Assembly: GCF_006345805.1 (NCBI RefSeq) | Contig: NC_043015.1 | Coordinates: 33,666,001-33,730,000, forward strand | Direction of reading: 5' to 3' | From: Octopus sinensis | Lineage: Eukaryota | Length of the DNA: 64,000 bases | Shown here: positions 1 to 6,732 of the stretch, in pieces | Layout: each line of letters opens with the position of its first letter | How positions within the stretch are numbered: the first letter of the stretch is position 1 | Translations under genes and position numbers: made by a program | Notes under the pieces: model-generated | What the model saw: the letters and a program-made list of their open reading frames with translations, nothing else | Told to the model about the DNA's origin: nothing | Databases searched by the model: none

Positions 1-123
1 CTTGTGAGCCTATTAGTCTATCAGTCTCTTTTGCTGAACCGCTAAGTTATGGGGATGTAAACACACCAACATTAGTTGTCAAGCAATGGTGGGGGGGACA
101 AACACAGACACACGAATATACAC

Positions 124-154
<31 letters not shown>

Positions 155-245
155 ACTAAATCCACTCACAAAGCTTTGGTCGGCCCAAAGCTATAGTGGA
201 AGACACTTGCCCAAGGTGCCACGCAGTGGGACTGAACCCAGAACT
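1..245 (-). mobile_element. tRNA-derived SINE, partial, with internal (CA)n/(TA)n
   Basis: Reverse complement of the SINE at 5760-6200 (gaagacacttgcccaaggtgccacgcagtgggactgaacc; gaaccgctaagtta). Confidence 0.85.
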
Positions 246-450: not shown

Positions 451-960
451 AATAGTGTACTTATATACTCATCTATGGTACCATTATTATAAGAGTTACC
501 TCTTATTAAGCGCTAGTTGGTTTGGTTTCCACCATGAAAGTGGTACAGAGCATGCAGAGAAATAAAACCAGGTAGCGCCACATTAGAGACAAGATTACAA
601 GATGAAATCACTTCCTATCCTTCTCTACATTAACTCCAGCACATAAATCATACATCCATACACCATTTATGCACAAAGAATGTTGGCTGTTAAATTCATC
701 ATGGGTAATTGCATTGCAGTAAATATATTGTTTGATAATTTCATTATAAGCTAATTACATCATGAGCAAATACATCGTCAATAAATTCATAACAATGTGT
801 TTTATCTGCAAAGTAAATACATCAGTAAACATTCTTTAAATTTGTTTATTATCACAATTTTCCTTTCTCTTGTTTTTTCTTGTAGGGAAAATATGTCATA
901 TTTAATTATGTATTTGGTATTACAATGGAATAAATTCAGAATATAGTTCATAAATCAGGG

Positions 961-990
961 AAGGGGAGAGAGAGAGAGAGAGAGAGAGAG
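961..990. repeat. (AG)n microsatellite abutting the 3' end of the Tx1 element
   Basis: Directly visible. Confidence 0.95.
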
Positions 991-1218
991 AATTTCCTTA
1001 TTCACCATAAGGTTGAGAAAAAGAGGGGATGATACAAGGACAGACAAAACAAACATTGGGGCCAGGGTATCGAATGAGACAAAACGTATGAATAAACAAA
1101 CAATTAAAATATATACAATTAAATGAGAATGAGTGATTAACAAAAATGAAGCGGAGGACGTAGTTGACCCCACAAACTCACACTGAAGACTTTGCTTTCT
1201 CCTTTTTTACATTCTCGT

Positions 1219-4200
1219 TTAAACAGGTTCTTTCACTCGCAACATACTTGCTATAGACTTCCATCTTTTACGAAACACACTTTGCGACAGGCATTTCTTC
1301 TCCAGCCTTATTTTCCGTTTCATGTGGAAAACGAAAAAGTCGATTAGCTCGAGACTGGAGATAAACATACCTGTTGCAATTCCTTTCACTCTCGTCTTCC
1401 ATACTACTTCTTTCGCCACAGCAACTACTGAAAGAAAACAGGCTCGCTCCTCCCTATTCAGGGAGGTTGACGGAACTATCTTAATTATAGATTCGCTCGA
1501 CAGTTGTACTTTTCTCGAATGCGACAGCAGGTGTTCGACATAAGCCCAGAGTTCAGTCACCTTGGGGCATTGCACAATCGCGTGCAGGACAGTTTCACTG
1601 TCCCTCTTACATCTTGCACAAACCGGCGAAGGTGCACACCCATGTTGAACCATTAAAGCTCCTCTGTAACATTGCCAGGCCAGGGACTTTTGGTAATTAT
1701 CCATAGGCCCCGGACCGAATGTTCTTTGGAACAGGCTGGCCAGTTGATTTTCGTCGAAGCCCAGGGTTTCTCCCAGGACATCGTCACACTTAAACTCTAC
1801 TAACCCTCTATAGAAGAACGAGGTAGTACTCCCGCCACCAGCGTTGCCCGACTGGGAGAGAAGCACGAGTGCCTAATGGCACTCTACATGCCACACGCCC
1901 AACCTCGGTCTACACTTGATCCATGGGTTCAGTTTAATAAACAATGTGAACTGTGGAAATAACAGCCTGACGAACGGAGACCACACCAGCTCACCGTCCA
2001 GGTAAAGCCAGAGGTGCATAAGCCTGAGCACATGTCTACACATTTTTAGCCACGGCATCCCTAACCCACCCTTCAGCGGCTTTTGGCAGCAAATAGAGCA
2101 CCTTAAAAGAGGTCTGCTGCCCCCCACAAAAAGCGAAAGAGCATGCATTCCAGCTTGTTCAGCCACGAATCAGGGCAAGGCAAGACGGTCAGGCGGTAAG
2201 TGATTACAGAGGCGATACACACCTCTGCAAACCTCCGCCCTCCCTTTCAAGGACAGCTTCCGCTCAGACCAGGTCTGAGTTAGGAGAGCCACCTTTCTCG
2301 CCACCTAGCTCCAATTCTTCTCTATCTGGAGATCTGGACCTAACCAGATTCCAAGCATTTTCACTGGCCCTTCCATCCAACGTCCCCACGATGCTGTTGG
2401 AAGACATCGACTTATCCCGGTTGACTTTTGCTCCTGCCACCACTTCGTAGTCCCTTAAGGCCTCACCCACCCACTGTAGGTGCTCCACTCGGGATATGAT
2501 GACGGTGATGTCATCCGCATATGCCGAAGCTGACTTTCCGCACCCTAGATCTTGTGGAGTGCTCCTCATAGTTTCCAACCTCCTCAGCAATGGCTCGAGG
2601 GCCAAAACGTAGAGAAGCGGAGAGAGAGGACACCCATGACGTACTGAACATTCAATGCGGAACGGCTCCGAAAAGAAACCATTCACCCGAACTACCGATT
2701 CAATGTTGCTGTATAAAACGTTGATCTACCCGTGGAAGGTTGGGCCGAAGCCAGCTGCCGCCAGATACTGATGGTCCACCCTATCGAACGCTTTCAATTA
2801 GTCCAAGTGGACCATAGCTCCACCCTTGCCAGGAATCCTATTTTACCCTTTCTAAGGCATAGCGTAGAAAGTGGAGATTGTCGTGGATGGTCCTTCCAGA
2901 GATGGCACAAGTTTGCGCCTTGCCAACAAGTTCACCCACAACCCGCACCGACCTTTTTGCTAAGACCTTGGCCAAAATCTTCAACTCTGAGTTAAGCAGA
3001 GTGATGGGCCAAAAATTATCAATTAAATCCCTCTTGTTTGGGTCCTTTCTTAACAGCGCTGCCACCCCTCGGCTCACAGACTTAGGAATTCTCCCGTTCT
3101 GCTGCCAGTTGGTGTACCCGCATGCAAGTAGGTGCCCAAACAAGTCTGGCATGCTACTATAGAGTTCTTAAGGCACACCATCAAGTCCCAGCAATTTGTC
3201 CCCGCTGCAGTCTGCCAACACATCCTCGGCTTCCTCGATAGACGTGGCGAACCAGCTAGGAAGTCTGCGAGCTTCTCCCCGTGCTCCAGTCCGCCGCTCC
3301 TCCCAAATAGCTGGGCAAAATGATCGTGAAACACCTTGCACATCTCAACGGGTTCGTTTACTGATCGACCATTTGAGTCTGTCAAAGATCGAATGGTTGA
3401 GTTGTTGCCACGCTGGCCCTCTACCACCTGGCCCATCTGGTTGCGTTGATCCCTTCCTGTCTCATTGCATGGATCTTAGCCCTGACAATGCACCCTTCAT
3501 GTTTAGCTTTGAGATGTTGGTCGAGTGCCAACCTCGCCGCTAACACTTTCGATGCACTGCCTGCCCTCATTACCTCATCTATTGCCTTAACTAGTTCCTT
3601 TTCTACTTTGTTTCTAGCACTAGCTAATTCTTTGCTAAACTTAATTGACTCAAATTTGATGGCTCTTTTCAGGGTGTACCACCGTTTGTTGTTGATAATG
3701 GATCCAGTTAACGCCCTCATTACTAATTGTTTAATCTGATTCCTGTAGGCTTCACAGTCCAATAGTGACTTGTTTAGCTTCCAGTAACCAGTACCTCGTC
3801 TACACATGCTATCTATGTTGAGTGTACAGGTCACTAATTTGTGATCGCTGTAGCTGATGATATGGTGTTGTGGAAATCTAAGTAATTTCTTATCTTTCCT
3901 TCTAGTTATGATTCTATCTATGTAACATCTGGACAACCCGTCGTTTCTTGCCCAGGTCCACACTGGAGTGTCTGGGTGGTCCAGTCTGAATCGATCTGCC
4001 AACTCGAAACGACTTAGCAGATCGTTGAGGTGAGGTAATCCCCTCCTATTCTTTCTCGAGCCAACATAATCTACACGTGCATCGCAAATTATGTTGAAGT
4101 CACCTAGCAATACTAACATGTTCGACGTGCCAAGAAAATTTTCTAGGCTTTTGAAGTAATCTTTCTGCCCGGCTTTTCCTTCGCAGGGAGCATAGACAGC

Positions 4201-4534
4201 GACCAGCCTGAACACTTTACCACTGCTGTGCGTCACATCCAAAATTACCAACCTGCCTTCCGGATCTATAAAGACAGTTCTAATCTCTAAATCCAGGTTT
4301 TTTCTGACCAGCACTGCCACTCCTCCGCCCCCTTCAAGTCGACAGGGAGAAACGTATTTCTCGTAGCCGTTTAGAAGGGGCGAAAAAGCCTGCAGCCCAC
4401 TCAGTTTGCATTCGGTAATTACAACTACATCCAAACGATGCGACCCAAGGTCGTTAAAGGAGGTAGCCTTGCTTCCAATACAACCCCAGGCCACAAATAT
4501 TTAAACAACCGAGTTTAAACGAGAATGTGAAAAA
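1219..4534 (-). pseudogene. Tx1 ORF2 (APE endonuclease + reverse transcriptase + zf-RVT), disrupted
   Basis: APE motifs FKLGCLNICGL (adjacent frame), VVITE, LLGDFN, YIDRI, SDHK. RT motifs NFWPITLLNSELKILAKVLA, HGCPLSPLLY, AYADDIT. C-terminal CARC-x7-H-x4-C. Stop TAA at 1219-1221. Confidence 0.92.
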
Positions 4535-5759
4535 TTAGTCGAATGTTTAAAACTTACTGTTTTAACGGGAGAGAGGGTGTAGTTTCACCCTCCTCTTTTC
4601 TGTCTGTGAGTGTTGTGGCCTGCGAGGTCATTTTTTTCGCTAATTGCCTGTACAGATGGCTCGAAAAGTTCACCTGTAACGGGCCTCCGCAAAAGATTTT
4701 TTTAGTTCAAAATAGTCAGAGTTATCTATAGTATAAAATTCGACATTTTCAAGAATAGTATTATTTACATCTGTTGCGATATATTTTTTCGCCGATTTCA
4801 TTAAAACAATTTTGTCTCTTAATAGTTTATTATTTTTGTTTATCGCCGTGAAGGTGTTTCTCTTTGTTATATTAGGCGATTGTGGAGGGGTGCTTGTGGG
4901 TGTGTGTGTGTGCTTGTAGAAGCATGGGTGTTTGTAGGTGTGTGTGTGTGCTTTTTCCAATGTGTGTGTTTTTTTGGCTATATGTGTGTTTGCGACTGTA
5001 TTTGTGGGTGTGGGTGTGCTTTTCTGTGTCGGAGCATAGTCCTGGGTATCCAAAGAGGGTGGATTTTTCCGTTTCCGTCTTCTTTTTGAAGGTTCCATGT
5101 TGACCCACTCCTGGATGTTGTTGTTTTCTCCTGCTGTCTACTGTACTTTGGCAATTGGGGTGCGCGATGTGGCTGCTATTTCTAGCGGTGTGGTCGTTGT
5201 CTTCGGCGTCGTGCTTGCCTCTTCTGCTGCGTTTCCTTTGGCTGTCTTCTTCTTACAGCTCAACCTTATGTGGCCTTTCTCGCCACATTTGTAACACCTG
5301 GGCTTTCTCCCCTCGACTACCACCATCATGCTGTATTTTCTCCAATTGTAAGGGAACTGGGCAATTTTTCTAAGTCTGAGGGGTTTGCTTGGATGACAAG
5401 CTCTAAATCTTGTCCAAACCAGTTTGTGTGGTGGTATCTCTTAGATTGAAGAATTGAAATTTCTTCTTCTTTGCCTATGAGAATCGCGGCTATGACAAAG
5501 GCCACATCTATTTCGGGTCGTATATCCGTGACTGTGATTTTTGAAGTTCTCTTTCCTAAGTCGGCAGGAGAACTACTCCTTCCGACTTCAATGTCCTTGT
5601 TCAATGTTCCCTAGCTTTTTCTTCGCTAGGGTGACGCACCTCTACCGTGCCAAAGCGATTACCCCACGTTATGTAGCTTGTTTGTTGCCATATCGGCCTC
5701 AAGCATTTTTTTATGGCTTCCCTCGGTACAAAATCGATTTTTTTATTTTTGACATTATA

Positions 5760-5924
5760 GGCGCAGGAGTGGCTGTGTGGTAAGTAGCTTGCTTACCAAC
5801 CACATGGTTCCAGGTTCAGTCCCACTGTGTGGCATCTTAGGCAAGTGTCTTCTACTATAGCCTCAGGCCGACCAATGCCTTGTGAGTGGATTTGGTAGAC
5901 GGAAACTGAAAGAAGCCTGTCGTA

Positions 5925-5975
<51 letters not shown>

Positions 5976-6200
5976 ATGTATATGTATTTGTGTGTATGTT
6001 TGTGTGTCTGTGTTTGTCTCCCTAGCATTGCTTGACAACCGATGCTGGTATGTTTACGTCCCCGTCACTTAGCGGTTCGGCAAAAGAGACCGATAGAATA
6101 AGTACTGGGCTTACAAAGAATAAATCCCGGGGTCGATTTGCTCGACTAAAGGCGGTGCTCCAGCATGGCCGCAGTCAAATGACTGAAACAAGTAAAAGAG
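5760..6200 (+). mobile_element. Full-length tRNA-derived SINE nested in Tx1 ORF1
   Basis: A-box tggctgtgtggt, B-box ggttcagtccc, central (TA)n, tail gactgaaacaagtaaaagag; tata duplicated at 5756-5759 and 6201-6204. Confidence 0.93.
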
Positions 6201-6439
6201 TATATGTTTTGTATATCACCGTCTTTCTCTCCGTCGCGTAAATTAATTTCACTGGAAGGGAGCAACTTCACATTATCACCTTCTCTCTTTTAGTAAACCT
6301 TAGTATTTCTTCAATTCTTCTTTGTTAATAATTATATTTTCGCAGGGGCGAGTTGCTGCAATCGCAAAAGTTTCCATTTTTCCTCTTTTTTAGCCTCGCA
6401 CGACATCTTGTCGTCTGCTTTTGTAACGCTCGCGTGAGA

Positions 6440-6511
6440 CGCCTCTTTACTTTTACCTTCCTCCACCCACATTTTCGCCTCTTTACTTTTACCTTCCTCC
6501 ACCCACATATT
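6440..6511. repeat. 36-bp tandem duplication in ORF1 (MWVEEGKSKEA twice)
   Basis: cgcctctttacttttaccttcctccacccacat repeated at 6440 and 6476. Confidence 0.9.
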
Positions 6512-6729
6512 CGCCTTGAAACAAATTTTCAAAGTTTTCCTCTGACTCGGAAGAAATTGGTGGCAAATTCATGTTTTTCGTCGCTTCCCCCTTGAAACAT
6601 GGGGGAAAGAACAGCAAAACTCTGTTGCAAGAGCAGAAAAGAAGTCGTCTCGATGACCAAAACAGCAAATTTTCACAATTTTCAGCACAAAAACGATCTT
6701 TCACGGCGCAGCAAAGAATAACACGACCG

Positions 6730-6732
<3 letters not shown>

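Follow-up and report, generated by a model that had tools for sequence, protein, structure and literature searches.

How a long interspersed nuclear element (LINE) translates its second open reading frame (ORF2) from a two-gene RNA, keeps the product scarce and acts in cis is still open, to judge from the cited excerpts (PMC11485995, PMC5381506). The locus described here raises that question in a natural setting. A 64,000-nt stretch of Octopus sinensis DNA (NCBI RefSeq assembly GCF_006345805.1, contig NC_043015.1, positions 33,666,001 to 33,730,000 of the forward strand; hereafter the window, meaning the whole stretch analysed) holds a copy of a Tx1-clade LINE, family A, in which ORF2 has no AUG at its start and its first codons are complementary to the region around its own stop codon, 3.3 kb away. 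Is this pairing real, and does it belong to the way in which ORF2 is started? Here, we report that the Tx1 lineage to which family A belongs has a real long-range complementarity closing ORF2, which covaries between families, and that family A combines it with a natural AUG-less ORF2 under selection; we infer its function. The complementarity is very probably a selected pairing. That the corresponding RNA helix hides the ORF2 start and acts as a translational gate is an interpretation by analogy, to which we give a probability of about 0.5. The parts of the element to which the text refers are as follows.

991..6731, minus strand: full-length LINE of the Tx1 clade (family A), bounded on either side by (TC)n tracts; the copy carries frameshifts and stops.
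4554..6572, minus strand: ORF1 with a CCHC knuckle, ~540 amino acids in intact copies, stop TAA at 4554-4556.
4535..4553, minus strand: inter-ORF spacer of 19 nt, without an AUG and with two TAA stops in frame with ORF2, which is +1 to ORF1.
4507..4534, minus strand: upstream arm, the first codons of the ORF2 frame (the arm described earlier, 4513-4534, plus an extension to 4507).
4520..4522, minus strand: UCG codon at the site of the ORF2 AUG in families C, D and E; its partner is CGA here and CAU in C, D and E1.
1219..4534, minus strand: ORF2 frame (endonuclease, reverse transcriptase, zf-RVT), broken in the window copy, first Met at codon 172.
1203..1229, minus strand: downstream arm, comprising the last ORF2 codons, the stop (1219-1221) and the first 16 nt of the 3' untranslated region (3'UTR).
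991..1218, minus strand: 3'UTR, with a poly(A)-signal-like motif and the (TC)n target at its end.

A preliminary description had noted an inverted repeat between 1203-1224 and 4513-4534, with 21 of 22 positions complementary and 16 contiguous pairs, placed exactly on the two ends of ORF2, and this is what we find. The 16-nt run is the longest exact inverted match within 1031-5755, where the runner-up has 11 nt, and Markov simulations of orders 1, 2 and 3 produced matches of at least 16 nt in 1, 4 and 4 of 1,500 runs, respectively (P ~0.001-0.003). The endonuclease frame begins in the upstream arm, right after an in-frame TAA and with no AUG, and the downstream arm contains the ORF2 TAA (1219-1221) and the start of the 3'UTR. 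The complementarity continues beyond the arms first described (4507-4512 with 1225-1229). Eight of the 16 bases in the run form a palindrome, so an alternative local hairpin at the upstream arm is possible in the window copy.

Pairing is found throughout the family, a point that had been left to be checked. In all 30 family-A copies (the best 30 of 45 genome-search matches) 16 to 21 of the 22 positions pair: 16 in one copy, 17 in 3, 18 in 11, 19 in 8, 20 in 5 and 21 in 2. The 16-bp run occurs only in the window copy among the 30. The base that completes it is an A at 1218 on the minus strand; the other near-full-length copies, 29 of 29, have T there, and genome-wide the exact 22-mer is present at 33 places with A (window included) versus 140 with T. 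Most copies therefore have a U.U mismatch at this position, and the run, although genuine in the window copy, overstates the pairing of most copies. We rejected the idea that it is private to the window, given that the allele is found at 33 places; none of the other 32 extends to the upstream arm. The seven A-allele copies long enough to compare (window included) are 94.5% alike, compared with 97.6% for the 29 T-form copies, which had been picked as the best full-length matches. Hence, the better-pairing A allele is probably the older, minority one. As a separate observation, 18 of 32 A-allele copies (L300-L331) end within ~140 nt upstream of the downstream arm, versus 3 of 20 younger copies (L332-L351), and some of the short A-allele copies may be interrupted, not truncated.

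Four further families, B-E, were recovered by homologous-protein searches and share 62-65% protein identity with A; further protein searches (P0002, P0011) returned mostly families already recovered. In all four the ORF2 AUG is present, and each has start-to-stop complementarity in its own sequence. Compared with 1,000 dinucleotide shuffles, the start and stop windows reach P<=0.012 in 11 of 12 own-genome rows and 0.036 in family D, for which the outer stem reaches P 0.0005 in a wider window against mononucleotide shuffles. When windows are swapped between families, every start window scores highest with the stop window of its own family. The inner helix joins the start-codon region to the last ORF2 codons, and in a single 14-pair register across six lineages 77 of 84 cells are paired (four loci without an anchor dropped; window copy not included), with two-sided changes in 8 of the 14 columns. 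The cognate assignment is the best of 120 permutations, and slid registers pair 21-43%. Within this register AUG:CAU in C, D and E1 stands against UCG:CGA in family A, and between E1 and E2 compensatory changes lie beside the AUG and also alter the ORF2 C-terminus. When the register was instead chosen automatically, as the best of 28, at 153 loci (both ends found at 119; some loci are the same genomic place), at least 12 of 14 positions paired in 27 of 34 haplotypes versus 33 of 3,000 shuffles; the window copy and a later-met lineage (L352) each reach 13 of 14. The preliminary description had named sister families and covariation as the places where the pairing might fail; it is present in B-E and it covaries.

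These comparisons bear directly on the explanation by chance or old accident, which would have a U-rich spacer match an A-rich 3'UTR by composition, or an ancestral inverted duplication decay passively. Both regions do have a biased composition, the score of the window copy is raised by the palindrome and the minority allele, and the young subfamily pairs less well. The composition-preserving shuffles, cross-family swaps, slid registers and two-sided changes all speak against such an origin, as do near-saturated synonymous sites: four-fold third positions are mostly only 30-50% identical between A and B-E, which makes passive inheritance unlikely. We regard this explanation as very unlikely and already largely refuted.

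From sequence comparison, the paired element is firm for the five own-genome families. A sister clade at ~40% identity has weaker pairing, shifted into the ORF1 end in 5 of 6 rows, with one compensatory pair, and among 18 more distant L1/Tx1 elements 17 lie at P>=0.26 and one at 0.055. This clade comes from a genome bin labelled as the bacterium Arenicella, in which contigs of CAXXMW01 (L184-L223, L226, L227) carry repeated Tx1 LINEs ~6.5 kb apart and are likely animal host DNA. The ~40% clade also has a splice-donor-like motif after the ORF1 stop (L185, L186, L192, L195, L199) and, in the same five and L221, another in the early 3'UTR after the ORF2 stop. The motifs vary between GTAAGT and GTGAGT, a similar family-A hexamer lies 40 nt past the ORF2 stop, and all may be U1 sites. 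At the L221 junction a TGA, which may or may not end ORF1, overlaps the ORF2 ATG, with a 14-bp pairing with the last ORF2 codons just upstream.

What, then, of the missing AUG? None precedes the catalytic Asn in 30 of 30 family-A copies, in line with the earlier reading of the single window copy. One of the 30 has an ATG 45 nt into the ORF2 frame, the reference copy has its first Met at codon 172, and a near-cognate AUU is the first codon of the frame in 18 of 30. In a quick maximum-likelihood tree, with no Kibi sequence included, family A nests among AUG-bearing relatives, so the loss of the AUG is derived. ORF2 variants present in at least three copies comprise 56 synonymous, 46 replacement and 1 stop changes, compared with 235, 517 and 30 among singletons (P=2e-6), and the only indel common to several ORF2 copies is in frame. 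For codons 1-171 alone the counts are small (9:7 versus 46:71 for singletons). Codons 5-171 retain 53-59% protein identity to the sister families and keep the Asn12, Tyr114, GDFN, IDR and SDH motifs; the catalytic Glu pattern gave no match in the reference copy. By these patterns, family-A ORF2, including the 171 codons ahead of the first Met, is under purifying selection.

Several ways around a missing AUG were considered. A frameshift or read-through fusion of ORF1 and ORF2 was rejected given the two ORF2-frame stops in the spacer, and a spliced-in AUG was rejected given that no AG lies between the in-frame stop and the catalytic Asn codon in the window copy and nearly all others. Adenosine-to-inosine editing of an AUA before the catalytic Asn to AUG is unlikely, as it would be expected to drop the first endonuclease strand, and the window copy has UUA. 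Because the AUG was lost yet ORF2, including the codons ahead of the first Met, stayed under selection, the pattern implies that family-A ORF2 would start by non-AUG re-initiation, as the remaining option. The preliminary description had tied the helix to the AUG-less start. A long-range helix that lays the end of ORF2 on its start is supported; the tie is not, given that B-E carry both the helix and an AUG. Hence, the helix is not dependent on AUG loss.

In families B-E the AUG sits within the helix. A gate is favoured for two reasons: the helix covers the AUG in these four families, and it starts at or close to the ORF1 stop. The predicted helix over the AUG fits start occlusion better than stimulation. 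The steps proposed here follow by analogy from phage MS2 and from structure-assisted non-AUG initiation, which is known in the excerpted source (PMC11165317). While closed, the helix would keep ribosomes from reaching ORF2 by free scanning or by internal entry. The ORF1 stop is located at the helix end or no more than ~20 nt from it, and a ribosome that terminates at this stop would melt the upstream arm and then re-initiate, so that ORF2 becomes coupled to ORF1. The helix would re-close behind it, leaving few ribosomes on ORF2, and would re-open when that ribosome arrives at the ORF2 stop, so that new ORF2 protein (ORF2p) is released beside its own 3'UTR. In family A, initiation without an AUG may be possible because the stem keeps the post-termination subunit on the first codons for long enough. 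The fullest form of the proposal, a self-resetting clasp that admits one ribosome at a time, delivers the finished enzyme to its own 3' end and fixes the initiation site so well that one family dropped its AUG and kept transposing, is possible but doubtful.

Folding predictions agree in part with such a helix. Net binding after local folds is predicted at -17 to -41 kcal/mol in 12 rows, and 0 of 31-32 ORF2 control windows match the net binding of the arms in 7 of 7 elements. Wide-window duplex energies without local competition separate C and D poorly; alignment scores and net binding do better.

Several observations weigh against a gate, or against the strength of its support. Whole-RNA minimum-energy folding forms the helix in E1 (1 of 1) and not in family A (0 of 2, window included). 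Among family-A copies, sense-strand binding exceeds antisense binding in only 2 of 6, compared with 6 of 6 in B-E, so binding does not settle the strand for family A. Pair-breaking changes are common to many young family-A copies, with no compensation. The 14-pair register was picked by eye from the same sequences, and five related families amount to few independent tests. In the ~40% clade P is 0.025-0.115 and net binding -5 to -9 kcal/mol, like distant controls. Finally, these data do not discriminate between repression, stimulation, splice control and a reverse-transcription role. The weighing of these alternatives involves further features around the junction.

4552..4557, minus strand: 5'-splice-site-like hexamer overlapping the ORF1 stop, called by the 5' splice site consensus; kept in families A, B, D, E1 and E2.
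4545..4566, minus strand: predicted local hairpin whose loop contains the ORF1 stop.
4573..4592, minus strand: predicted local hairpin in the last ORF1 codons.
4602..4610, minus strand: predicted outer pairing of the ORF1 3' end with 3'UTR 1177-1190, in three family-A copies.

The helix could instead stimulate ORF2 translation, its outer stem tethering a ribosome that terminates at the ORF2 or ORF1 stop beside the exposed start, with closed-loop recycling and tolerance of non-AUG codons. Start and stop are closely registered, and the outer stems of B-E use the 3'UTR to ~+50, which is past the footprint of a terminating ribosome at its known size. Family A, moreover, dropped its AUG and continued amplifying. 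The first round would nevertheless still have to open a helix that covers the start, and LINEs are thought to need little ORF2p. Tethered re-initiation in caliciviruses tolerates non-AUG codons, and their termination upstream ribosome-binding site (TURBS) has a UGGGA core 40-90 nt before the upstream stop, as given in part of one source (PMC5972666). Inspection of the window copy shows no such core in the ~100 nt that precede its ORF1 stop, which is a difference from the calicivirus system. We consider stimulation unlikely, and a gate remains the preferred reading.

Splice control is unlikely too. The helix would mask or position the 5'-splice-site-like motif at the ORF1 stop, or loop out ORF2 as an intron, yielding an ORF1-only mRNA. 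This would give meaning to the hexamer, which is found at the ORF1 end in A, B, D, E1 and E2 (5 of 6 lineages) and in the ~40% clade, whereas 17.1 kb of ORF2 sense strand contain just two copies of it; in D and E it is covered by the outer stem. Families B, C, D and E also have, beyond the downstream arm, a pyrimidine tract with YAG; position -3 varies between C and T in E. However, neither family A nor subfamily B2 has the candidate AG, and in C-E a predicted hairpin encloses it. No ORF2-skipping joint was found in contigs of four runs on B and four on E1 (runs presumed to be RNA, family A not covered, contigs dropping rare forms), and a search with three exact patterns found no genomic junction copy for A, B or E. 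Splice control also leaves unexplained an inner helix that centres on the start codon.

The same centring bears on a third role, that of a replication platform, in which the helix shapes the ribonucleoprotein or presents the 3'UTR to ORF2p for target-primed reverse transcription, the overlap with the start codon being incidental. The downstream arm lies ~200-430 nt from the 3' end and, in C-E, just ahead of a conserved 3'UTR hairpin, and the cited part of a study on tomato bushy stunt virus (TBSV) describes a 3,000-nt pairing of the kind known as UL-DL that is needed for replicase assembly, not translation (PMC2648310). If the helix were a platform, there would be no reason for the start codon to be paired in five families while both protein ends are constrained, and an exact-pattern genome search found no ORF2-deleted family-A copy joined across the helix. 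We hold this role to be unlikely.

ORF2 of the intact copy L013 has an apurinic/apyrimidinic-like endonuclease, a reverse transcriptase and a C-terminal zinc region (Pfam Exo_endo_phos, RVT_1 and zf-RVT), and it is one open frame of 1,117-1,138 amino acids in copies L013, L019 and L029. An upstream ORF1, a poly(A) signal, 5'-truncated copies and the lack of long terminal repeats complete the features of the Tx1/L1 group, and the nearest named protein is from Argonauta hians (61%). ORF1 of the window copy is interrupted by an insertion at ~5760-6200, itself a short repeat with related pieces in opposite orientation at window 13-244. The arms were considered as terminal inverted repeats of a DNA transposon; this was rejected, as they are internal and the 30 copies have common flanks beyond both. 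Rfam covariance models gave 0 matches at gathering score in window 950-5800, local models being blind to a 3.3-kb pairing, and the viral contigs searched held no relative.

All 28 family-A 3' ends located (of 30 copies) run into (TC)n. Microsatellite targets differ between families (L005, L031, L050, L048, L091): (TC)n in A, (ATT)n in B and (TATC)n in C-E, with one or two representatives each for B-E. A hairpin is conserved in the 3'UTR of L050, L048, L091 and L092; its loop is rich in pyrimidines, and it shows a compensatory pair in family D. It is a candidate recognition element for reverse transcription and is not evident in family A. Head-to-tail tandem copies occur in family A (L005/L022) and family C (L049/L050). 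At L352:2204-3400 a 5'-truncated family-A copy is nested in the TC-rich upstream arm of a C-like element whose ORF2 has lost a large internal part and whose downstream arm contains a (GA)n expansion; L319/L352 had been considered as an ORF2-deleted chimera, which was rejected in favour of this nested insertion.

Beyond this genome, the question of LINE ORF2 translation becomes testable by a few point mutations, because the Tx1 lineage supplies a concrete cis element, compensatory pairs that arose naturally and a family that lacks the AUG in nature and is under selection. AUG-less ORF2s are mis-annotated wherever annotation demands an AUG start. RNA viruses have regulatory pairings that span several kilobases, and none was found for a LINE in the literature searched. 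The preliminary description had known of no such element in Tx1/L1-group LINEs, and our full-text search returned no start-stop helix and no AUG-less ORF2 reported for LINEs, Tx1 included, subscription journals, Repbase notes and supplements being outside its scope.

The closest known elements are Tx1-clade LINEs of the Kibi/Koshi type. They likewise have two ORFs, an endonuclease and reverse transcriptase and a microsatellite target, and family A shares the (TC)n target of Kibi, as described in the excerpted source (PMC4494074). Family A differs in its invertebrate host, and its likeness to teleost Kibi is one of target. L1 retains its ORF2 AUG in nature, whereas the loss in family A is natural and its pairing partner lies 3.4 kb away. 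Mammalian L1 is otherwise alike in its bicistronic RNA, short spacer and AUG-independent ORF2 translation (PMC5972666, PMC11485995, PMC5381506, in the parts available), and vertebrate L1 spacers folded alone had no common structure in the excerpt of one survey (PMC5381506). In the non-LTR element SART1, ORF2 translation requires an RNA structure located downstream of the ORF1 stop, and the stop and start codons overlap (excerpt of PMC5972666); family A has no such overlap, with a 19-nt spacer, no AUG and a long-range partner.

Long-distance pairings are known from viruses. The tombusvirus UL-DL interaction brings a distant region to the 3' part of the RNA over ~3,000 nt, in an RNA virus and with its role in replicase assembly, not translation (PMC2648310, in part). 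A likeness to a gate is seen in the Min Jou interaction of MS2, in which, as the cited excerpt has it, 7 bp over ~300 nt shut the start of the downstream polymerase gene until upstream translation opens the pairing (PMC11339067). Both cases place a long-distance pairing over a downstream start, predicted and covarying in the LINE; MS2 is a bacterial phage with its pairing partner in the upstream gene, whereas here the partner is the end of ORF2 and the 3'UTR.

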